From the UHGV virus genome UHGV-1298062: a DNA stretch of 14,957 nt. One strand, 5' to 3'. Origin of the DNA: a virus. The notes below the pieces were generated by a model. The model did no database searches and had not been told where the DNA came from. It saw only the letters and a list, made by a program, of their open reading frames with translations. The translations under genes were made by a program, and so were the position numbers. Positions 87 to 14,922 of the stretch are shown here, piece by piece. Every line of letters starts with the position of its first letter. Position 1 is the first letter of the stretch.

Positions 87-854
87 ATGGACGATTTATC
101 GGTATACGCGAGATCATTGGATAAGGCTAAATACTATGTTTACTGTCTCTATGATACAGAAGACAAGATGAAAAGACCGTTTTACATAGGAAAAGGCAAA
201 TCGACTCGTTGTCTCGATCACATCAAGTATCCCGATGACTCTCCCAAATCCATGCGGATCAAAGAACTTTTGGCTAATAAAAAATTAGGCATAGATATTC
301 TTCGTCATGGTATGGATGAAACCACAGCCAAACTTGTTGAGGCGACATGCATCGACCTTATGGGGGTCGGAGAGCTTACGAATAAGGTACGAGGAAGTGG
401 TTCCATGATGGGCAGAATATCACTGGACGCCTACCATCACTTAGTGCTGCAAGAGGAAACTGAAATTGCTCCTGAGCACGCCGGTCTTGCCTTCCTGCTA
501 AACAGCACCTACAAGTCAGGAATGTCCGCTCTGGCATTATATGAAGCTACGCGTGGCGTATGGGCAAAGGTTCCAAGAGACGAGAATCTCAAATATGCCT
601 ACGCTACATATGGGGGCCTGATAATGGAAGTTTATCAGATTGAATGCTGGGTCAAAGCCGGTTCTCAGCAGTACTTTACAAGGGATATAGCTCTTGGCCC
701 CGACACAAAACGTTATGAATTTGTTGGCAGAATAGCCGATGAGCATATCAGAAAACTGTATGTAGGCAAATTAATCAAGAAGCCACCAAGCTACGGCAGC
801 CCTTTTGTGAAGGTTGGGGTGGTTAGGAATGAACATAGTGTTAGCGCGGCATAA
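87..854 (+). CDS. GIY-YIG-like nuclease domain protein with uncharacterised C-terminal domain
   Basis: ATG at 87 with AAGAG 8 nt upstream; 255 codons. N-terminal ~95 aa shows a GIY-YIG-like pattern (YVYCLYD ... FYIGKGK ... R..DH, then candidate catalytic E and N further on). C-terminal ~150 aa has no motif I can assign. Followed by the hairpin terminator at 870-908. Confidence 0.6.
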   Translation: MDDLSVYARSLDKAKYYVYCLYDTEDKMKRPFYIGKGKSTRCLDHIKYPDDSPKSMRIKELLANKKLGIDILRHGMDETTAKLVEATCIDLMGVGELTNKVRGSGSMMGRISLDAYHHLVLQEETEIAPEHAGLAFLLNSTYKSGMSALALYEATRGVWAKVPRDENLKYAYATYGGLIMEVYQIECWVKAGSQQYFTRDIALGPDTKRYEFVGRIADEHIRKLYVGKLIKKPPSYGSPFVKVGVVRNEHSVSAA

Positions 855-869
855 AGCTGACACTGTACT

Positions 870-908
870 TATGCATTGGCGCGTACATTGCGCCAATGCA
901 TAATTTTT
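870..908. terminator. Rho-independent terminator hairpin between convergent genes
   Basis: Perfect 13-bp inverted repeat tatgcattggcgc / gcgccaatgcata (870-882 and 890-902) with 7-nt loop, followed on the + strand by ATTTTT (903-908). Lies between the gene ending at 854 (+) and the gene ending at 907 (-). The T-tract is only on the + side, so it mainly terminates the + strand gene. Confidence 0.55.
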
Positions 909-1266
909 AACCTTTCTTCATCAACTCTCGTTTGATTTCATCGGTACGCATCGTGACATCGGCAGCTGTGATCGCCTCGTTAAGTTTCACGATGTCCTCG
1001 ATTTCCTGCGGTGACTTCTCTGCCAGATGGAAAATGGCTGCGCGAATCACGTCAGAACGGGTGAACTTCTCGAAACGAGGGATGAACTTCATCATTTCCA
1101 GCAGTTCGAAGTATTCGTCCTCCAGTGACATTGTGCGGCTTTTAATTTTCTCTTTGCCACGAGTCGGGCGTCCCTGTGGTCTGACTGGTTGGCGCAAAGG
1201 AGTTGTGTTCTTGGCCGGTGCATCAGGCTCTTTGCGCTTTGCTAGGTCACCCATTTTCATGGACAT
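907..1266 (-). CDS. small partner protein of the ParA-like ATPase (ParG/ParB-like, putative DNA-binding adaptor)
   Basis: ATG at 1266 overlaps the stop of the upstream ATPase gene (TAATG), implying translational coupling. 119 aa with a basic, Pro-rich N-terminal tail and a C-terminal region consistent with strand-helix-helix. Assignment is by position and size relative to a small ParA, not by a diagnostic motif. Confidence 0.5.
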   Translation of the reverse strand: MSMKMGDLAKRKEPDAPAKNTTPLRQPVRPQGRPTRGKEKIKSRTMSLEDEYFELLEMMKFIPRFEKFTRSDVIRAAIFHLAEKSPQEIEDIVKLNEAITAADVTMRTDEIKRELMKKG

Positions 1267-1934
1267 TATTCTTCTTCCTCCAGACTCAACAGATAATCTA
1301 CAAATTCTTCAAACTCGGCTTCCGCCTTTTTGTCGCGCTCGCTACCGGTCATTTCAAAGATAGAACGACCAGACTCTTCCGCATCATCATAGACGTTGCG
1401 GTTATATAAATTGACTGGCGCAGACTCGATGCCAAACGTCTCGACAATCTCTTTAGCCGCCAAAATGCGAGACACTTGTGATGGCAAAGCCGGGCACTGG
1501 TTCATGACCGCGCGGACCTTCACTTTATCGTTTACATTACGAACATTGTCGATAATAGGATCGATGTCACGCAGAGATTTCAAATCACGACGCTTAGGAC
1601 GAAGCGGGATAATGATAACGTCGGCCATCAGCATCGCTTGTCGCTGAATTTCGGAGTCAAAGCCACCAGCATCTACCACTACAAACTCAGCTCTACCCTG
1701 AAGCGATTTTAGGTGCTTAATGATGTCATCCTGAACGTATGCAAAAGGAATCAGCTCAAGGTCTTCGTTCTGTCGACGGTCTTCACACCAGCTTGTTGTC
1801 GTGCGCTGAATATCTATATCAGTGATATAAACCTTCTTCTTCTTTTTGACTTTCAGGCAAACGGCAATTTGCTGGGCAACAGTGGATTTGCCAGGCCCGC
1901 CCTTTGTGCCGCCAACCACAAAGATCTTGGTCAT
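1266..1934 (-). CDS. ParA/Soj-family ATPase (small, deviant Walker A; type Ib partition-like)
   Basis: ATG at 1934 with GGGAA 7 nt upstream; 222 aa. Deviant Walker A KGGPGKST near the N-terminus (VVGGTKGGPGKST). Its length and lack of an N-terminal HTH extension are typical of ParF-like small ParA proteins. Confidence 0.8.
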   Translation of the reverse strand: MTKIFVVGGTKGGPGKSTVAQQIAVCLKVKKKKKVYITDIDIQRTTTSWCEDRRQNEDLELIPFAYVQDDIIKHLKSLQGRAEFVVVDAGGFDSEIQRQAMLMADVIIIPLRPKRRDLKSLRDIDPIIDNVRNVNDKVKVRAVMNQCPALPSQVSRILAAKEIVETFGIESAPVNLYNRNVYDDAEESGRSIFEMTGSERDKKAEAEFEEFVDYLLSLEEEE

Positions 1935-2253: not shown

Positions 2254-2523
2254 ATGTCCGCACTGAAAAAGCAGCGCATCGATTTGAGATTAACCGATGA
2301 CGATAAAAGCATCATCGAGGAAGCTGCCGCAATGTCTAACCAGAGCATTACCCAGTTCATGGTTAGCAGTGCATCCGAACGTGCCGTGAAGGTGATAGAG
2401 CAACACCGTAGACTGGTTCTAAGTGAAGAGTCCTGGAATCTGGTTATGGATGCTATAAGCAATCCTCCGGCACCGAACGACAAGCTGAAACGAGCTGCCA
2501 ATCGTCTGAAAAGCATGGAGTAA
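2254..2523 (+). CDS. DUF1778-type ribbon-helix-helix antitoxin (AtaR/TacA/KacA family)
   Basis: ATG 2254 with GGGGG 5 nt upstream; 89 aa. The sequence (MSALKKQRIDLRLTDDDKSIIEEAAA...QFMVSSASERA...) matches my recollection of antitoxins paired with GNAT toxins. Only 8 nt separate it from the toxin gene. Confidence 0.82.
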   Translation: MSALKKQRIDLRLTDDDKSIIEEAAAMSNQSITQFMVSSASERAVKVIEQHRRLVLSEESWNLVMDAISNPPAPNDKLKRAANRLKSME

Positions 2524-2530
2524 TTTACTC

Positions 2531-3052
2531 GTGAGCAATACGACGATCGAGATTTTCTCTGGAGAGAACGATTATGATCTAAACGGTTTTGATTGCGGCG
2601 AAGAGTCACTAAACGCATTTTTGACCAACCACTTAAAAAGACAGCATGAAGGAAAAATTCTTCGCGCTTATGTGCTTTGCACTAAAGAAGAAATACCAAA
2701 GGTATTAGGTTATTACACTTTGTCAGGCAGCTGCTTTGAGAAAGAAACCTTACCTTCAAAGAGTCAGCAAAAGAAAGTGCCTTATCGGCATGTCCCAAGT
2801 ATCACTTTAGGCAGACTGGCTTTGGACAAATCTCTTCAAGGTCAGGGGCTTGGCTCAATGCTTGTAACTCACGCAATGCGTGTTGTGTACAATGCATCTC
2901 TTGCGGTAGGCATTCATGGGCTTTTCGTTGAGGCGTTGAACGATAAAGCCAGAGCGTTTTATAAAAGTTTGGGCTTTATCCAGCTGGTTGGTAACAACGA
3001 TCGTTCTTTGTTCTATCCAACAAAATCTATCGAAAAATTGTTCGAAGAATAA
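2531..3052 (+). CDS. GNAT-family acetyltransferase toxin (AtaT/TacT/KacT-like, tRNA-acetylating type)
   Basis: GTG 2531 is the only in-frame start, with GGAG 10 nt upstream; 173 aa. GNAT signature including the acetyl-CoA-binding block LQGQGLGSMLV. Conserved blocks (FDCGEE.LN.FL, ILRAY.LC, LGYYTL.GSCFE, PS.TLGRLA.D.SLQGQG, GIHGLFVEALN.KA..FYKSLGF) match tRNA-acetylating toxins as I recall them. Confidence 0.82.
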   Translation: MSNTTIEIFSGENDYDLNGFDCGEESLNAFLTNHLKRQHEGKILRAYVLCTKEEIPKVLGYYTLSGSCFEKETLPSKSQQKKVPYRHVPSITLGRLALDKSLQGQGLGSMLVTHAMRVVYNASLAVGIHGLFVEALNDKARAFYKSLGFIQLVGNNDRSLFYPTKSIEKLFEE

Positions 3053-3084: not shown

Positions 3085-3288
3085 TCACCAACCGCAAACT
3101 CTCTCTCCCATCGTATTGTGAAAAAGGATTTGGCGTTCGGTTTCTTCGGTCATTACATCGTCATTGCTGATATAAATAGGTTCAGCGCCATCGCAGAACA
3201 ACACGCTGGTGGTCTGTGGCTTAATTGCGCACCCACTTATCATGCAGCTCACGATGAATGGCAGAAGCATCTTTCTGACGTATTTCAC
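3085..3288 (-). CDS. outer-membrane lipoprotein, o-spanin (Rz1)-like, overlapping the 3' end of the upstream gene
   Basis: 67 aa from GTG 3288 (alternative ATG at 3270). n-region MKYVRK, hydrophobic core, lipobox ISGC with Ala at +2 (outer-membrane sorting under Lol rules). Overlaps gene 3221-3472 by 68 nt in another frame. Not proline-rich, unlike lambda Rz1. Confidence 0.5.
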   Translation of the reverse strand: MKYVRKMLLPFIVSCMISGCAIKPQTTSVLFCDGAEPIYISNDDVMTEETERQILFHNTMGERVCGW

Positions 3289-3472
3289 TGTTCATCTCAT
3301 TCACCACTTCCACTGTGCTTTGAAGACGCTTGTTATCTTCCCGCCGTTCTTTCTCTTCCATACTGCGTCTGGCCATATACCCGCCATAGGAGTATGCGCC
3401 GACAAGGACTAGAATGACGGCGGCCAGAGTGAACAAAGCGGATTTCATTTTGAACAACAGGCCGTCGAACAT
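3221..3472 (-). CDS. small inner-membrane protein with N-terminal TM helix and charged coiled-coil tail (i-spanin/Rz-like, unusually short)
   Basis: ATG 3472 lies 2 nt after the stop of the upstream gene; 83 aa. Hydrophobic segment SALFTLAAVILVLVGAYSYGG, then a highly charged helical tail (RRSMEEKERREDNKRLQ...). Confidence 0.55.
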   Translation of the reverse strand: MFDGLLFKMKSALFTLAAVILVLVGAYSYGGYMARRSMEEKERREDNKRLQSTVEVVNEMNSEIRQKDASAIHRELHDKWVRN

Positions 3473-3474
3473 AC

Positions 3475-4167
3475 TTACACTAATCCTTTCTGGTGCTTGC
3501 GAACCTGGGACCAGGCAATGAATGCTGCCACAAGAATGGTAGCTACGCCAAAGATGATGCGTACCGTATCTCCACTGGAGATATTGCCTTGCGCTTTATC
3601 CATTGCGGCAGAAACTTGAGGCATAACGTCAGCAATTTGTGCAAGGCCAATACCTGCAGTGACTGTAGCACCTGTGGTTTCTTTTGTTACAGGAACGGCT
3701 TTTACAGCCTTTACCGGTTTGACAATGCCGGCACGTCGCAGACCTTCTTCGATAAGTTCTGGTGTATACCAGCTATTGGGGGTTTTCAGCGGACCTCGGC
3801 CATTTTCATGTCTAATGATCGCCTCTACCAGCGGTCTTAAGGTCTCGTAGTCATGCAGATCGATAATCATATCTGGTGCTACTCCAACGGCTTTGGATAC
3901 CTCGTTCACATAAGCCAAAGTGTTGTTCTCATGTGGAGGCGCCCAGCGTTCGATGACTTCGCGGATCGTATCAATGCTGGAGCCATCTTTTGCGCGGCGC
4001 TTGTCGTGGTAAGTAATGAGTGTCACTGCCAAAGCCCGAATCCCCCACACGGGGTCTTTGAACGTGCAGAAACGCGGTTCTGAAGAGTTGTTGACTAAGC
4101 CCTGCCACGGCGCTCCTTTATCAAGATTACCGGGGTTGTTATTACGAATGCCTCTCGGAGTTTTCAT
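3475..4167 (-). CDS. tail-anchored membrane protein with unassigned N-terminal domain (RNNNPGN block) and C-terminal TM helix
   Basis: Preferred start ATG 4167 (AGGAG 7 nt upstream); the ORF extends to an ATG at 4194. 230 aa, no N-terminal signal peptide. N-terminal ~150 aa globular domain (GIRNNNPGNL...W.G..., HENGRG), Lys/Val/Thr-rich linker, C-terminal hydrophobic helix IIFGVATILVAAFIAWSQV followed by RKHQK. Confidence 0.7.
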   Translation of the reverse strand: MKTPRGIRNNNPGNLDKGAPWQGLVNNSSEPRFCTFKDPVWGIRALAVTLITYHDKRRAKDGSSIDTIREVIERWAPPHENNTLAYVNEVSKAVGVAPDMIIDLHDYETLRPLVEAIIRHENGRGPLKTPNSWYTPELIEEGLRRAGIVKPVKAVKAVPVTKETTGATVTAGIGLAQIADVMPQVSAAMDKAQGNISSGDTVRIIFGVATILVAAFIAWSQVRKHQKGLV

Positions 4168-4180
4168 CCTTGATCTCCTG

Positions 4181-4504
4181 TTATTGCAATCCATTTTTTA
4201 CGCCATACGCGGCCAATCCTAAAAGCAGTACGGTAATAATGAACGACGTTATTTTCGAAACAATGCCGCCAAAGAACCCACTGGAGATGGTGTCGAGCCG
4301 GTTAAGAAGTTTGTCCAGATTGGAGTGCTGAATGCTGTGTTGTGCGGGCGTCATATCGCCAAAGTAGGTTTTGAGCTGGTCATTGACCTCCTGACCAATT
4401 TCCTCGCGTATTTCTTTACCTAATTTGCCTACGACTTCCCGAGCAACGATTGAGGCGATGCGCTCAACCTGTTCAGTTGTGACTCCCGCCATCTCGTTCG
4501 ACAT
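4181..4504 (-). CDS. small tail-anchored membrane protein (charged soluble N-terminal region, single C-terminal TM helix); holin-like or regulatory
   Basis: Preferred start ATG 4504 (GGAGGA 5 nt upstream); the ORF extends to an ATG at 4516. 107 aa; C-terminal helix ITSFIITVLLLGLAAYGV. A 13-nt gap containing the next gene's RBS separates it from 3475-4167. Confidence 0.65.
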   Translation of the reverse strand: MSNEMAGVTTEQVERIASIVAREVVGKLGKEIREEIGQEVNDQLKTYFGDMTPAQHSIQHSNLDKLLNRLDTISSGFFGGIVSKITSFIITVLLLGLAAYGVKNGLQ

Positions 4505-4540
4505 GTTTTCCTCCATGAAAAGTCAAATCGGGATGGCGTG

Positions 4541-4549
4541 TTTATATCA
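4541..4549 (-). promoter_or_regulatory. candidate extended -10 element (TGATATAAA) for the membrane-module operon
   Basis: Minus strand reads TGATATAAA (complement of 4541-4549), about 25-35 nt upstream of the first in-frame ATGs of gene 4181-4504. No convincing -35 hexamer. Confidence 0.35.
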
Positions 4550-4564
4550 TATTTTAACCATTTG

Positions 4565-4588
4565 TAGTAGGTATGTACTTACCTACTA
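4565..4588. promoter_or_regulatory. perfect palindrome tagtaggta-N6-tacctacta upstream of the membrane-module operon (candidate activator or repressor site)
   Basis: 9-bp arms at 4565-4573 and 4580-4588 with 6-nt spacer tgtact. Centre lies about 42 bp upstream of the start site inferred from the extended -10. The core is shared with motifs at 7978-7997 and 14787-14802. Confidence 0.4.
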
Positions 4589-4637
4589 TATATCTTGCAA
4601 ACTAATCGTTGTTAATAATGCAGATATAATCTGCCCC

Positions 4638-5219
4638 TTACTCTGCTGGTATTGTTGGCCAGTCAATATCCGGTGCCGTTGATGTGTCAATGCGGTTCAA
4701 TAAAACTCTATACTTCTTCCATGCAGTCAGCAACGATGCTTCTTCCTCCGTTGCAATCTCCAAATCTACAGCATCCTGAAGTGGCGCAATGTGCTCGCTG
4801 GCTACCTGCATCAGACTTTTTTTTGTTTCTTCCGCTTCCCGTACCTGAAACAATTTTTCTGTTTCCTCATCCTTCTCCCAGGATGTGCCGTCCCACTTCT
4901 GATATTCCCCATCCGGTGATAACCAGGTGACATTTTCCGGTAATGGCCCAAGTTCAGAAATAAACAACGCGTCCCCTGATTCCACGTCATAGACCGTTTT
5001 ACCCCTGTGGTCTTCAACGAGACTCCATGATTTATTTTCGCTGTTGAATACGGCCACGAAGCCTGCCGGAATATCTGGCGGTGCAATATCGGTACTGTTT
5101 GCTGGCAGACCTGTATAAGGCGGAATATATGCGTCACCTTCACCAATAAATTCATTAGTTCCGGCCAGCAGATTATAAATTTTTATGGTCCGTGGTTGTT
5201 CACTCATTCTGAATGCCAT
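4638..5219 (-). CDS. tfa: tail fibre assembly protein Tfa (lambda Tfa-like)
   Basis: 193 aa. Matches phage lambda Tfa along its whole length as I recall it ([34 protein letters not shown]...[14 protein letters not shown]). ATG 5219 overlaps the stf stop (TAATG). Confidence 0.9.
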
Positions 5220-7933
5220 TATGCAAGCCTCACAATATAGTTAAATGCGATGTTTTTGACGGTGTTTTCCGCGTTACCAGCAGCGTTAACGGTGATGGTG
5301 TGTCCATGTGAACCAATCGCAACGGAGTGCGTATGAGCACCAATACCGACAGTATGTGTGTGTGCACCTGCGCTTGCAGCAGTACCCGATACAGAGTGCG
5401 TATGAGCGCCTGCAGAAGAAGTGTTAACACTGTATTTAGAATAATCAGGTGATCCACTTCCCGGAGCACCACTGGAACCACCTGAAACAAATGTCATCGA
5501 ATGGGTATGTGCACCGGCTGAAGCAGCCGTACCGCTAACACTATGGGTATGCGCACCAGTGTTATTCGTGGATTTAGTGCCGTAATCAAACGACGATGTG
5601 GTTTTCGTCCCCAAATCCGTACTGGATGCGCTGGCGCTGTGGGTGTGCGATTTAATGCCGTCCTGTTCCTGAGACAATACGGCACGACCACTGGCGGGCT
5701 TGCCCTTAATCGTCCAGCCACGCATATCAGGGATCACGCCTGACGGATACGCAACCGCAAGCAGGGGATAGGCTGCCTTATCAAAAGCCTGCCCCTGCAT
5801 AATGGCATAGCCTGTAGGTACTGAATCAGAAGGCCACGGAATCGCCGCACCTACCGGAAATGAATCCTGCGGCGTCCAAGGTGTCCAGCCACCCGTTGAA
5901 TACTGGCTGCGGGTATAGCTTCTGGATGTGTTATACACATAGTAAATTTGTGTTATTCCGGCATTTTTAAGCACAACCAGAGTGCCCGCAAGGTTCTCCG
6001 GGTATTTCAGCGATGCGCTTGCATTCGCATTCAGTGGCTGATGGTACAGCCCCGGCGTTTTGTAATTATCCAGATTCTGGTTTGCACCAATCTCAATACT
6101 CTGACTGTTAAAAATATCCTGCGATGTAACATTGACATCATTGGTCAGTGGTTTGCCATTGACCTTACGCTCGCCAGGAACGCGCCCGTTTGCATTATCA
6201 TTAGCTGCTTTCACTGCTTTCGGTGTCGCGGCAAACGTTTCAGATGCGCTGTTGGTTGCACTACTGAGCTGGACAATTCCTTTTTGTGCTGTCGTAGCGT
6301 CCTGAGCAGTATATTTCCCGTTAGCAAGGTCATAGGCTGCCTTTACCGACTTTGGCGTTGCCGCCAGCATTTCAGATGTGCTGTTGGTCGCGTTGCTAAG
6401 CTGAACTATCCCTTTCTGTGCTGTCGTTGCATCCTGTGCGGTGTATTTCCCGTTAGCCAGGTCATACGCGGCCTTAACGGCTTTTGGTGTTGCCGCCAGT
6501 GACTCGGAAGTACTGTTGGTCTCACTGCTAAGTTGTACTATTCCCTTATTCGTCGTGCTTGCATCCTCAAGCGCCACGGCGGATGCAATATCCTCTGCCC
6601 GTTTTGCCGCTGTCTCAGAGCGTGTTGCCGCGGATTCTGCCGCATTTTTGCTCTGCGCAGCCGCCGTCGCACTGTCTGCCGCTTCCGTCGCCTTCGTTGA
6701 TGCCGTTGTCGCACTCTCTGCTGCCGCTGACGCCTGGCGAGCGGCCTCATCTTTTGAAGATGACGCCGAGGAAGCTGAAACAGAGGCAGAGCTTGCAGAT
6801 TCGGCTGCTGTCTCCTTAGAAGCAGCGGCATTGTCTTCTGAAGTCTTTGCATTGGTTTCAGAAGATTTTGCCGCCTCTGCTGACTTTTCCGCAGCTGTTG
6901 CCTGTTCCGTCGCCTCTGTCGCTTTAGCGGTGGTATTTGCCGCAGATAACGAAGCGCTTTCCGCAGACTTTTCTGCCGACGTTGCACTTGATGAAGCACT
7001 ATCCGCGCTTATTGAGGCCGCGCTCGCTGACGTTTCTGCCGCAGATTTAGAACTGTTTGCAGACAATGCACTCTGTTCGGCAGCAGCTTCAGACGCTTTT
7101 GCGTTTGTCTCTGATGCTTTTGCTGCCTTACATGAATTTGCAGCTTCTGTAGCTGATGATGCTGCCGCGTTTGCACTCGATGAAGCGTTAGTCTCTGATA
7201 ATTTAGCCGCATCCTTAGATGCAGAGGCACTGGACGCTGATGTGGCTGCCTCCGATGCTTTAGTCGACGCCACAGATGCTGATTTTGCTGCCGCTTCTTT
7301 TGCCGCTTCTGCGTTTGTTTCAGATTTTTCCGCAGCAGCTGCACTCTCACTCGCCGCACTTTGTGAAGATACCGCAGCGGATGCACTTTGAGATGCCTGA
7401 GAGGCTTTTTCTACAGCAGTGTTGGCACTTTCTGCCGCAGCGACAGCACTGGCCGCCGCCTCCCGAGCTTTGTCTCCAGCGGCCTCAATCGCATCGGTGT
7501 TATTTTTATACCACTCAACGTTTTCGTTATGCTCGTTGACGATCTGCATTAGCGGCTTAACGGTCACTTCTGTACCGTCTTCACGCTCGATTGTCACATC
7601 ATCCAGAGCGGTCAACCAACTGCGCATGGACTTGGAATCAGCCGACATACGCGACATTAGTGCAGTAAAGCGCGCACTAAACTGAGTTAAGTCGCCTTCA
7701 TAGGTCGTAATGATTCGGCACGGAACTTTAGATTGAGTTTCGCCGGTATAAGGTTCTGAGAGGACAATGACCGTATCACTGGTTACGCGCTTGACCTCAT
7801 ACAACTTATTGTCAGGACCAATGACAATCATGCCCGGTAACACGCCGTTTTCGGTCAAATTCCAACGTGTTCCGATGCCTGATATTGTGTCGCTTCCTTT
7901 TGTAAATGTAACAGTACCTTCCCTGTACCACAT
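5219..7933 (-). CDS. stf: side tail fibre protein Stf (lambda Stf-like C-terminal part, different N-terminal domain)
   Basis: Preferred start ATG 7933 (AAGGAG 11 nt upstream); the ORF extends to GTG 7975. 904 aa. Ala/Ser-rich low-complexity shaft, three tandem tail-fibre repeats ([42 protein letters not shown]), C-terminal block matching lambda Stf ([45 protein letters not shown]) with HxH repeats. Confidence 0.9.
6190..6570 (-). repeat. about 2.8 tandem copies of a 132-bp in-frame repeat inside stf (phage tail-fibre repeat)
   Basis: Period seen directly: gtatatttcccgttagcaagg at 6309 and gtgtatttcccgttagccagg at 6441 (132 bp apart). Encodes the repeated KGIVQLSS...[19 protein letters not shown] unit. 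Boundaries approximate. Confidence 0.6.
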
Positions 7934-7977: not shown

Positions 7978-7997
7978 ATAGGTATATACTTACTTAT
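7978..7997. promoter_or_regulatory. imperfect palindrome ataggta-N6-tacttat sharing the GTAAGTA.ATACCTA core with the site at 4565-4588
   Basis: 7-bp arms with one mismatch. On the minus strand it reads GTAAGTATATACCTA versus GTAAGTACATACCTA at the other site (14 of 15 identical). Lies in the J-stf intergenic region. Confidence 0.35.
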
Positions 7998-13253: not shown

Positions 13254-14038
13254 TTTTCATCTCCCTTGAGTAAGTCTCTGTGACGCAGATGGTGCGTCGT
13301 ATGTTTCTGGTACATGCCGCCGTAATAAGCGCGACAACTCAGGCGGTCGATTTGGTGATGCAGGATCATGCCGTCTCCGATATACACCGCGCAGTGATCA
13401 GGCATTTTCCCGTACTGGATGAAGAAGACATCGCCGCGCTGCGGCTCCGTCCCTGGCGCAAGACGCACAAGCCCTTCATTTCGATAGTTATGGTCGAGAA
13501 TGTCATCATCACCCGTGTACCATGACGGAATATGCAGATGCGCATTCGGGTTCAGCTCGACACCAAACTCTCGTTTCAGATAGTCGCGACAAAGCATCCA
13601 GCAGTCGAAGACGCCGAACACATAGGGTCGGCCCAGATAAGGCATCTCAAAGCCGTCTGGGGTGATCACATTCATTTCACTGAAGTGAAATGGCGCATCG
13701 CCCTCGATGTTCTTGCGAACAGCCAGAATCAGCCACGGAACTTCCGTTGCCTCACATCCGGCGCGGTCGGCGTCTGACGCATCAGCAGATTCGTCAGTAT
13801 GGGAGTGCCAGATGGCAACCACGTCTCCCGCATCTTCCGCAGTGATAATGTCGTCAGCGTGCATAACAAACGTGTTTTCCGGGTGCTCCGACACGTTCCG
13901 GGCTTCAATGAAGCGATATTTCTCGCCAGTGGTACGCACCAGAAAGCCACACGCTTCGTTCGGGTAACGTTTAATGGCTGTCAGATAGATTTCCTGCATA
14001 ACGTCCGAACCAAGCTCCGGGAATACTCTATTGCCCAT
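13241..14038 (-). CDS. K: tail assembly protein K (lambda gpK-like; JAB/MPN plus NlpC/P60-type domains)
   Basis: N-terminal region resembles a JAB/MPN domain (NEACGFLV ... IWHSHTD) and the C-terminal region resembles the NlpC/P60-type part of gpK (FDCWMLCRDY ... HCAVYIGDG). Start uncertain: ORF opens at TTG 14065; in-frame ATGs at 14038 (chosen, overlaps the L stop by 11 nt) and 13999. Confidence 0.82.
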   Translation of the reverse strand: MGNRVFPELGSDVMQEIYLTAIKRYPNEACGFLVRTTGEKYRFIEARNVSEHPENTFVMHADDIITAEDAGDVVAIWHSHTDESADASDADRAGCEATEVPWLILAVRKNIEGDAPFHFSEMNVITPDGFEMPYLGRPYVFGVFDCWMLCRDYLKREFGVELNPNAHLHIPSWYTGDDDILDHNYRNEGLVRLAPGTEPQRGDVFFIQYGKMPDHCAVYIGDGMILHHQIDRLSCRAYYGGMYQKHTTHHLRHRDLLKGDEKCLS

Positions 14039-14774: not shown

Positions 14775-14902
14775 ACAATGATAGTAAATTAGTACTTACT
14801 TATCCAGGTACTTAAGCCTCAAATACTTGTCTGAATGTAGCAGTTAAGACACAGTACCCCTGATATCGCTTAGACTGGCCCCCTGAATCTCCAGACAACC
14901 AA

Positions 14903-14922
14903 TATCACTTAAATAAGTGATA
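14903..14922. promoter_or_regulatory. 20-bp palindrome TATCACTTA-AA-TAAGTGATA (candidate dimeric DNA-binding protein site)
   Basis: Perfect 9-bp arms with 2-nt spacer in the non-coding region upstream of L. Half-site TATCAC equals the first six bases of the lambda operator consensus half-site, but the spacing differs from 17-bp lambda operators. Confidence 0.35.

Follow-up and report, generated by a model that had tools for sequence, protein, structure and literature searches.

A dispersed palindromic motif at the predicted lysis promoter of an SSU5-like phage-plasmid

Background

This report concerns a palindrome upstream of a lysis cassette in the virus genome UHGV-1298062, of which a stretch of 14,957 nucleotides (the window) was analysed. 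The described systems nearest to it are found among phage repressor networks, activator-dependent promoters and plasmid operators. The conserved inverted repeats of phage phiC31 form a multi-operator repressor network, and mycobacteriophage D29 is without a repressor yet retains stoperators. At class II promoters CRP and FNR bind at -41.5, and lambda CI bound at OR2 occupies -42 relative to PRM. KorB of plasmid RK2 acts via about a dozen palindromic operators, some of them immediately upstream of the -35 hexamer. The stoperators of L5 and Bxb1 (PMC9283540, PMC6550527) and the C1 operators of P1 (NC_005856) are present as tens of dispersed copies, mostly in the short intergenic spaces of lytic operons. 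D29 is, according to PMC5712189, a lytic phage derived by deletion from a temperate parent. Phage P1 also has 11 Lpa-dependent late promoters with a conserved 9-bp inverted repeat (PMC10695390; NC_005856).

The source element of the window is an SSU5-like Escherichia coli phage-plasmid. Elements of this kind, which carry resistance genes, are often found in clinical E. coli, Klebsiella, Salmonella, Enterobacter and Acinetobacter (PMC9600943, PMC12217456). Searches of the literature yielded nothing on how they silence their ~100 kb of lytic genes or time lysis. They likewise yielded no description of gene regulation in the SSU5 family or of the sequence of the dispersed motif reported below (motif A), which is not proof of absence.

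A palindrome probably coupled to the predicted lysis promoter

The palindrome at 4565-4588 is very probably the operator of a protein, coupled to the promoter of the lysis cassette. Promoters and start sites are sequence predictions throughout. The repeat had been noted as a perfect 24-bp palindrome; its two 9-bp arms are indeed perfect and the central GTAC of the spacer is self-complementary, but the T/T pair flanking that centre breaks the symmetry, leaving 22 of 24 positions symmetric. The 15-kb window contains only four distinct inverted repeats whose arms are perfect over 9 bp or more and whose spacer does not exceed 10 bp (five overlapping hits), against a mean of 0.7 hits in first-order Markov simulations; for a 121-nt stretch the corresponding P is 0.003.

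On the minus strand the palindrome is followed at a short distance by the extended -10 sequence TGATATAAA (Table 1). The TATAAA hexamer (4546-4541) matches five of six consensus positions, and the whole has the form of an extended -10 for sigma-70, with TG at -15/-14, one free nucleotide and a TATAAT-like hexamer. It was missed by a generic promoter scan because that scan demands T at the sixth hexamer position. The -35 position is occupied by TACTAC, which agrees with TTGACA at one base of six. With transcription predicted to start near 4534, the dyad centre (4576.5) falls at -42.5 +/- 1. The first-pass annotation had placed the palindrome about 42 bp upstream of the implied start, beside an extended -10 that lacks a usable -35, and both statements hold. 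A dyad near -41.5 over a poor -35, the arrangement of a class II site, is therefore what is found here (centre -42.5, TACTAC).

Conservation of this block was followed in 44 IMG/VR loci that have the holin leader in common, plus Salmonella phage SSU5 and E. coli phage-plasmid Cyrano. The search pattern for the loci set the leader sequence and left upstream features free; the comparison as a whole comprised four complete genomes and the 44 partial loci. Homology among the relatives begins at the palindrome, which is kept as (A/G)TA(G/A)GTAAG..(C/T)ACCTA(C/T). The next 17 nt diverge widely in sequence and are constant in length in the 44 loci, SSU5 and Cyrano. Beyond them TGnTATAAA is kept, with A, T or G at the free position. 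The last base of the hexamer (-7) is never T among the sequences seen, being A in nearly all and C or G in two. Because two conserved blocks thus flank a spacer that is constrained in length and variable in sequence, palindrome and -10 appear to be a coupled operator-promoter pair.

The sequence upstream of the palindrome is of at least six unrelated kinds, including lambda-type tfa, cor and P1-S-type fibre genes, and at some loci the upstream open reading frame extends into the left palindrome arm. Since the promoter block follows at least six unrelated modules, the lysis cassette is predicted to carry its own promoter, and the earlier suggestion that the genes downstream form a separate transcription unit gains support from the sequence comparison. 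The sign originally offered for such a unit, a weak hairpin after tfa (4620-4634), has to be given up: it is not terminator-like and is restricted to the lambda-type tfa context. A terminator scan found no terminator-like site in 3300-5400, this hairpin included, and the hairpin lacks a U-tract and is absent from the minimum-energy fold.

The architecture of the lysis promoter recurs in a distant relative, since an Acinetobacter element likewise has a palindrome, 17 nt and TGTTATATT. The distance there is counted from a 16-bp core, and the centre lies at about -40.5. This counterpart sits upstream of a gene in the holin position, which precedes an annotated lysozyme gene.

Motif A as a genome-wide family

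The palindrome is not private to the holin: it proves to be one of a family of about 20 copies per genome. The family consensus, motif A, is ATAGGTAAGTACTTACCTAT (20 bp). SSU5 has 10 sites at up to three mismatches and 23 at up to five; the plasmid pTB212 (NZ_CP033252.1), which served solely as a close relative of the window element, has 13 and 23. Mononucleotide shuffles gave means of 0 and 0.6 at the same two thresholds, with which the counts vary. The motif is thus present in many copies far above chance, as dispersed operators are.

Of the 23 SSU5 sites, 21 are intergenic with respect to the annotated coding sequences or overlap a stop codon by no more than 8 nt. Those in the structural cluster are found between terL and the portal gene, between the major capsid protein (MCP) and decoration genes, among the tail genes, between J and stf, and upstream of the holin gene. 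Those in the replication and nucleotide-metabolism region are found among thyA, nrdA, methyltransferase, single-stranded DNA-binding protein (SSB) and recombinase genes. Like stoperators, the sites stand in short intergenic regions of lytic operons. The reverse-strand cluster of SSU5 (95.6-99.7 kb) has none.

Three copies occur in the window (Table 1). Orthologous copies are kept in SSU5 and pTB212 despite divergent flanks. A relative from Acinetobacter baumannii, pDETAB1 (TerL 60% identical), has ~25 copies of TAGTAAGCGCTTACTA, i.e. (AT)ATTAGTAAGCGCTTACTAAT(AT), and a relative from Aeromonas (TerL 54% identical) has ~15-20 copies of CAGTAAGYRCTTACTG. The core GTAAG-NN-CTTAC is common to all three clades and the outer bases are clade-specific. 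Judged from sequence, these properties point to the binding site of a dimeric DNA-binding protein encoded by the phage-plasmids themselves. A GC-rich hairpin lies 2-9 nt past copies 2 and 3 of the window, and the same pairing is seen at several sites in SSU5, pTB212 and the Acinetobacter relative.

Candidate binding proteins

If motif A is a repressor operator, its most likely binder would be an XRE-family protein of ~129 aa (the homologue of CYRAN_45; pTB212 15725-16114) encoded beside the integrase gene. This protein is called the putative master repressor of Cyrano in PMC9928086. The relatives from Acinetobacter and Aeromonas have homologues in syntenic position, 37% (E 3e-11) and 35% (E 8e-10) identical respectively. 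Enteric homologues are 60-95% identical overall, and the recognition helix is identical in pTB212 and Cyrano, the two enteric members compared. A motif A copy stands upstream of the XRE gene in E. coli and Aeromonas, and a half-site only in Acinetobacter. The predicted promoter of the gene, TTTACA-N16-TAATAT, is directly followed by GGTAAGCACTTACC, so that the motif A core would cover the start (L006, 15560-15725; L053, 11576-11700); an operator in this place would suit autoregulation or shut-off. A homologue search found no XRE gene in SSU5, which PMC5427195 describes as a virulent phage. In Cyrano, a predicted divergent early promoter ~150 bp from the XRE promoter has an extended -10 identical to that of the holin promoter, TGATATAAA.

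A second conserved candidate is SSU5_130, a protein of 88 aa encoded immediately upstream of terS in all four clades, SSU5 included. Its AlphaFold2 model is a confident winged helix (pLDDT 87), for which the top Foldseek matches are AF1382 and regulators of the MarR/MepR/PadR type (TM up to 0.75). A sequence search of SSU5_130 against solved structures gave nothing significant. In staphylococcal phages the target promoter of RinA is placed upstream of terS by PMC3152322. Two proteins with a ParB_N domain are a weaker third option.

Other regulators were considered and set aside. FljA-like and SSU5_054-like proteins are absent from the Acinetobacter and Aeromonas relatives and so cannot be universal binders. 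The enteric 'transcriptional repressor' (pTB212 21301-21828, SSU5_121), whose gene belongs to the reverse-strand cluster, matches Pfam Flag1_repress over its full length (E 1.5e-95); this is the family of FljA, the repressor of phase-1 flagellin. A phage sigma factor is annotated in the Acinetobacter relative only: pDETAB1 24664-25329 encodes a sigma-70 family sigma factor between a MoxR/CobS-like ATPase gene and dnaE, and tblastn found no homologue of it in SSU5, pTB212 or the Aeromonas element.

Motif A is not the only dispersed palindrome: AAACAAnTTGTTT occurs at ~17-20 sites per enteric SSU5-like genome (in SSU5 e.g. 56, 81, 30449, 34385, 42729, 82468, 88370, 92759 and 94525). It is concentrated in the early region of small genes and is also found upstream of dnaB, cobT, nrdB and terS. 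Several copies have the form GATAAT-aACACCAACAAGA-AAACAAnTTGTTT-aaGGAG..ATG, and some directly follow terminators. In the window, 36 nt separate the copy at 1970-1982 from the start codon of parA downstream. The Acinetobacter and Aeromonas relatives have practically no copies of this palindrome, so a second regulator, confined to one clade, probably uses these sites as its operators.

Regulatory role of motif A

For the family as a whole a negative role is favoured, with motif A as the operator network of a repressor or silencer; we put the probability of this at roughly 45%. The argument rests on the variety of positions that the motif takes, and on the conserved, syntenic XRE regulator with its motif A copies, whose gene the virulent phage SSU5 lacks. 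At predicted promoters, three site families have the motif at about -42, three more at about -30 (with 4-5 nt between the palindrome and TGTAAGAAT or TGTCATAAT), and in others it lies over the predicted start. Many conserved copies leave no room for a promoter, standing right after a stop codon, against a Shine-Dalgarno sequence or before an intrinsic terminator, the last at MCP|decoration, at M|L and upstream of nrdA. A repressor or roadblock is favoured because such a protein alone works from all these registers. Bound at the palindrome, it would cover about -52 to -33 of the lysis promoter, exclude RNA polymerase there and so gate transcription of the lysis genes. The network would keep the lytic clusters off during plasmid life. 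Motif A was also considered as a directional promoter with its own -10 and rejected: -10-like hexamers overlap both palindrome edges without bias to gene direction, being at least as frequent backwards, and there is no conserved -35.

Several observations weigh against a negative role. With -7 never T and no -35, the lysis promoter looks from its sequence like a deliberately weak, activator-dependent late promoter, and the strict 17-bp spacing and the position at -41/-42 are the classical geometry of class II activation. Positive control of late genes has been reported for well-studied phages (PMC10695390). The core is conserved across genera far above what is usual for immunity operators, and SSU5, without the XRE gene, retains a perfect 28-bp version of the site. 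In the divergent region at the Acinetobacter XRE gene no motif A copy was found at the predicted early lytic promoter, and -35 hexamers beside motif A copies are not clearly enriched over chance.

The chief competitor of the silencing network, possible though distinctly less probable, is activation of the class II type. A dimeric activator encoded by the element and present in the lytic phase would bind at about -42.5 and recruit RNA polymerase to the lysis promoter; the 88-aa winged-helix protein is the candidate. The geometry of the lysis copy, with its centre at -42.5 +/- 1, invariant spacer, 1/6 match at -35 and TATAAA with non-T at -7, speaks for this explanation, and the same architecture (~-40.5) precedes the Acinetobacter holin-position gene. 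Two other site families consist of the palindrome, 18 nt and TGATAAAAT or TGATATAGA. However, a palindrome followed by 17-18 nt and TGnTA... is seen in only three of ~23 enteric site families, and when all copies are taken together, -10-like hexamers do not generally peak at this distance. The many copies beside stop codons, terminators and ribosome-binding sites have no promoter on which an activator could act, and the motif is found in DNA-metabolism genes too, not in late genes alone. As to the protein, none of the four clades lacks SSU5_130, and it is present in SSU5 itself, where motif A persists without XRE; its predicted fold resembles that of MarR/MepR/PadR-type regulators, and its gene position resembles those of P1 lpa-pacA and of RinA as given in PMC3152322. 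It could equally be a packaging accessory, and its ties to motif A consist of its conservation and a motif copy heading its operon, nothing else. The original alternative of a class II activator or a repressor over the -35 thus keeps its geometry and the conserved coupling of palindrome and -10, but the lysis copy is no dedicated site and most other copies have a different geometry.

In an extended form, which together with simple class II activation makes up the main rival, one protein would serve as a temporal switch, repressing at sites that cover the start and activating at -42. Start-covering sites (thyA, methyltransferase and XRE genes) would then be off and -42 sites (lysis cassette) on. 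The most far-reaching version, to which we would give only a small chance, is that the SSU5 supergroup, from Enterobacteriaceae to Acinetobacter and Aeromonas, has an apparently undescribed regulon built on the 20-bp palindrome with one small protein as its temporal switch, and that the enteric clade adds the second dispersed palindrome for another regulator.

A role of the DNA beyond promoters seems unlikely. Motif A would then be the binding site of a ParB-like protein (KorB- or centromere-like), or a recombination hotspot or boundary at which the tail-fibre host-range cassette is swapped. Two ParB_N-type proteins and an ATPase are conserved in all clades, and a motif A-like copy heads the ParB-like operon in three of them; PMC11790492 presents KorB of RK2 as a ParB-family CTPase active in long-range silencing of plasmid genes. 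However, Pfam finds only the N-terminal domain in the proteins concerned here and no recognised sequence-specific DNA-binding domain. As for recombination, homology among the relatives breaks exactly at the holin-proximal palindrome, and the copies at 7978-7997 and 4567-4586 bracket stf-tfa. Such a break is nevertheless expected at a promoter edge where a conserved module ends, and the 7978 copy is no mosaic junction, because the stf N-terminus immediately beyond it is conserved. Neither a centromere nor a recombination role explains the fixed spacing to the -10.

An element acting in RNA is highly improbable. Its hairpin would terminate, pause, process or stabilise mRNA, or bind an RNA-binding regulator such as a FljA-like protein. 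The palindrome does form a 9-bp hairpin in the minimum-energy fold, many copies occupy 3' or 5' untranslated positions by stop codons, terminators or ribosome-binding sites, and the E. coli and Salmonella members code for a FljA-like protein (Flag1_repress). However, the FljA-like gene is missing from the Acinetobacter and Aeromonas relatives, which retain motif A. The fold of the region has a z-score of only -1.4, and an intrinsic terminator is not credible, given the AT-rich stem followed by CAAAUGG, the lack of a U-tract and the absence of terminator calls. Rfam 15 gives no match overlapping 4517-4637 at E <= 1, the nearest being IS009 at 4678-4876. Covariation is not what the copies display: half-sites within one genome decay independently, ~30% of variable pairs are non-Watson-Crick, and G-T on the sense strand (equivalent to G-U) is no commoner there than A-C. 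AT-rich flanks extend the symmetry of motif A weakly. Because the sequence is conserved and the pairing is not, the site of a dimeric DNA-binding protein is favoured over an RNA hairpin. A functionless chance repeat, for which nothing speaks except the AT-rich intergenic setting, is already refuted by conservation of the sequence across genera, besides a local P of ~0.003 and ~20 copies per genome where shuffles give 0-0.6.

The window and the lysis cassette

All large genes between 14.8 kb and 3.2 kb of the window are on the minus strand, in the order tail L, K, I, J, stf, tfa and three small genes. The last three, originally called a membrane module, do lie downstream of the palindrome, and matches to PHROG families and by megablast identify them as a lysis cassette of holin, endolysin and spanin genes (Table 1). 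The region 3400-4593 is ~82% identical in megablast to the holin, endolysin and Rz spanin genes annotated in SSU5 and Cyrano. For the 111-aa open reading frame at 4181-4516 the holin label comes from its position and the depositors' annotation only. Most of tfa and ~80 nt of the 3' end of stf (~4656-5300) are ~89% identical to lambda at the nucleotide level.

The stretch 4400-4700 is matched over its full length at 99-100% by 27 PLSDB plasmids, pTB212 among them, of ~52-190 kb and mostly ~105-120 kb. pTB212 does not contain the window as an exact substring, and the annotated tail-fibre regions of the two differ.

The holin leader and early coding region can form a stable RNA hairpin (4487-4538) enclosing the Shine-Dalgarno sequence GGAGG (4514-4510) and the AUG (4504-4502). 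One of its pairs changes from C-G to U-A between leaders of the E. coli and SSU5 types. By its predicted structure the hairpin may damp translation of the holin. The IS009 match (RF02111, minus strand) scores 189.6 bits against a gathering score of 117 and lies wholly within the lambda-like tfa coding sequence; the family appears to model a conserved piece of tfa and not a separate RNA here.

Adjoining the lysis genes is a block for plasmid maintenance and accessory functions at 2254-3052 (plus strand), 907-1934 (minus) and 87-854 (plus). It encodes a KacAT-type toxin-antitoxin pair (DUF1778/GNAT), a protein with a GIY-YIG domain and a ParA ATPase whose partner, of 119 aa, is ribbon-helix-helix-like in appearance. 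No motif A copy was found in this block. Three further inverted repeats also have perfect arms of 9 bp or more. That at 873-899 (GCATTGGCGC-N7-GCGCCAATGC), possibly a bidirectional terminator, separates the convergent GIY-YIG gene from the small gene that lies downstream of parA; those at 13673-13692 and 14903-14922 are within tail-gene coding sequences.

Table 1. Positions of the palindrome, promoter elements, motif A copies and neighbouring features in the window
Feature	Position	Strand	Remarks
Inverted repeat TAGTAGGTA-N6-TACCTACTA	4565-4588		Two perfect 9-bp arms; spacer TGTACT on plus strand
Motif A copy at lysis promoter, 20 bp	4567-4586		3 mismatches to ATAGGTAAGTACTTACCTAT; 0 to GTAGGTA-N6-TACCTAC
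Spacer from palindrome to TG of extended -10	4550-4566	-	17 nt; in relatives length invariant, sequence variable
Extended -10 TGATATAAA (TG, n, TATAAA)	4541-4549	-	17 nt downstream of 20-bp core
Predicted transcription start of lysis cassette	4533-4535 (near 4534)	-	Predicted from position of the -10
Leader/early-coding RNA hairpin of holin	4487-4538	-	dG -22.4 kcal/mol; z -3.4; 0/200 shuffles
Putative holin	4181-4516	-	107 aa from the likely start at 4504, following the annotation of SSU5, Cyrano and pTB212; phrog_5093
Endolysin	3475-4194	-	phrog_873, E 3e-86
Rz-like spanin	3221-3472	-	phrog_1026, E 8e-22
Weak 6-bp hairpin GCAGAT-N3-ATCTGC after tfa	4620-4634	-	Only with lambda-type tfa module
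tfa, tail fibre assembly gene	4638-5219	-	Lambda-like; upstream neighbour of promoter block
Motif A copy 2, between J and stf	7978-7997		ATAAGTAAGTATATACCTAT on coding strand; orthologues SSU5 21937, pTB212 43523
GC hairpin GTGTGGGC-N6-GCCCACAC after copy 2	7975-7954	-	No T-run
Motif A copy 3, between M-like and L tail genes	14784-14803		5 mismatches; orthologues SSU5 15589, pTB212 50329
Terminator-like hairpin and T-run after copy 3	14774-14747	-	Just ahead of L ribosome-binding site

Comparison with known systems

What began as a lone palindrome has become a testable promoter-operator pair for the lysis cassette. One operator motif at nearly every lytic transcription unit offers an experimental handle (one protein, one consensus) for studying induction, superinfection immunity and the engineered curing of SSU5-like plasmids, and motif A helps annotators to delimit transcription units.

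The Lpa system of P1 resembles the lysis promoter in several ways. It too belongs to a phage-plasmid, a small inverted repeat near the -10 replaces the -35, and the regulator gene is just upstream of the packaging genes. The P1 box AAGTTACTT is superficially like the centre of motif A, AAGTACTT. However, the P1 box is 9 bp at about -22, whereas motif A is 20 bp at about -42 and occurs in early-type clusters as well. Lpa gave only E >= 0.2 in tblastn against four family genomes and the window, and E 37 in BLASTP against the winged-helix candidate; for neither Lpa nor C1 could a homologue be detected in SSU5, pTB212 or the Acinetobacter and Aeromonas relatives. With box size and position different and no Lpa homologue, an Lpa-type late promoter was rejected.

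The KorB operators of RK2 are like motif A in being palindromic and repeated round a plasmid genome, there in the service of global silencing, and the present elements also encode ParB-family proteins. Those of SSU5 are without a predicted sequence-specific DNA-binding domain, and the link is by analogy only. For the lysis copy taken alone, class II promoters are the closest analogue, with a dyad at about -42, no -35 match and fixed spacing. Unlike these, most other motif A copies have another geometry, and the lysis start is predicted.

For the family as a whole the closest analogues, on present comparison, are the dispersed repressor operators of L5/Bxb1, P1 C1 and phiC31. The sites of L5 and P1 are asymmetric, and those of L5 orientation-dependent, whereas motif A is palindromic over 20 bp and flanked by AT-rich sequence; asymmetric sites in fixed orientation, which define the L5-type stoperator, are not seen, the flanks of motif A being only weakly asymmetric. 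Conservation of the core across three bacterial orders is also unusual for immunity operators. The likenesses lie in the tens of dispersed copies, in their location mostly within the short intergenic spaces of lytic operons and in the copy at the promoter of the repressor gene itself, as with motif A at the XRE gene. SSU5, in which the XRE gene is absent and the sites are kept, parallels D29.

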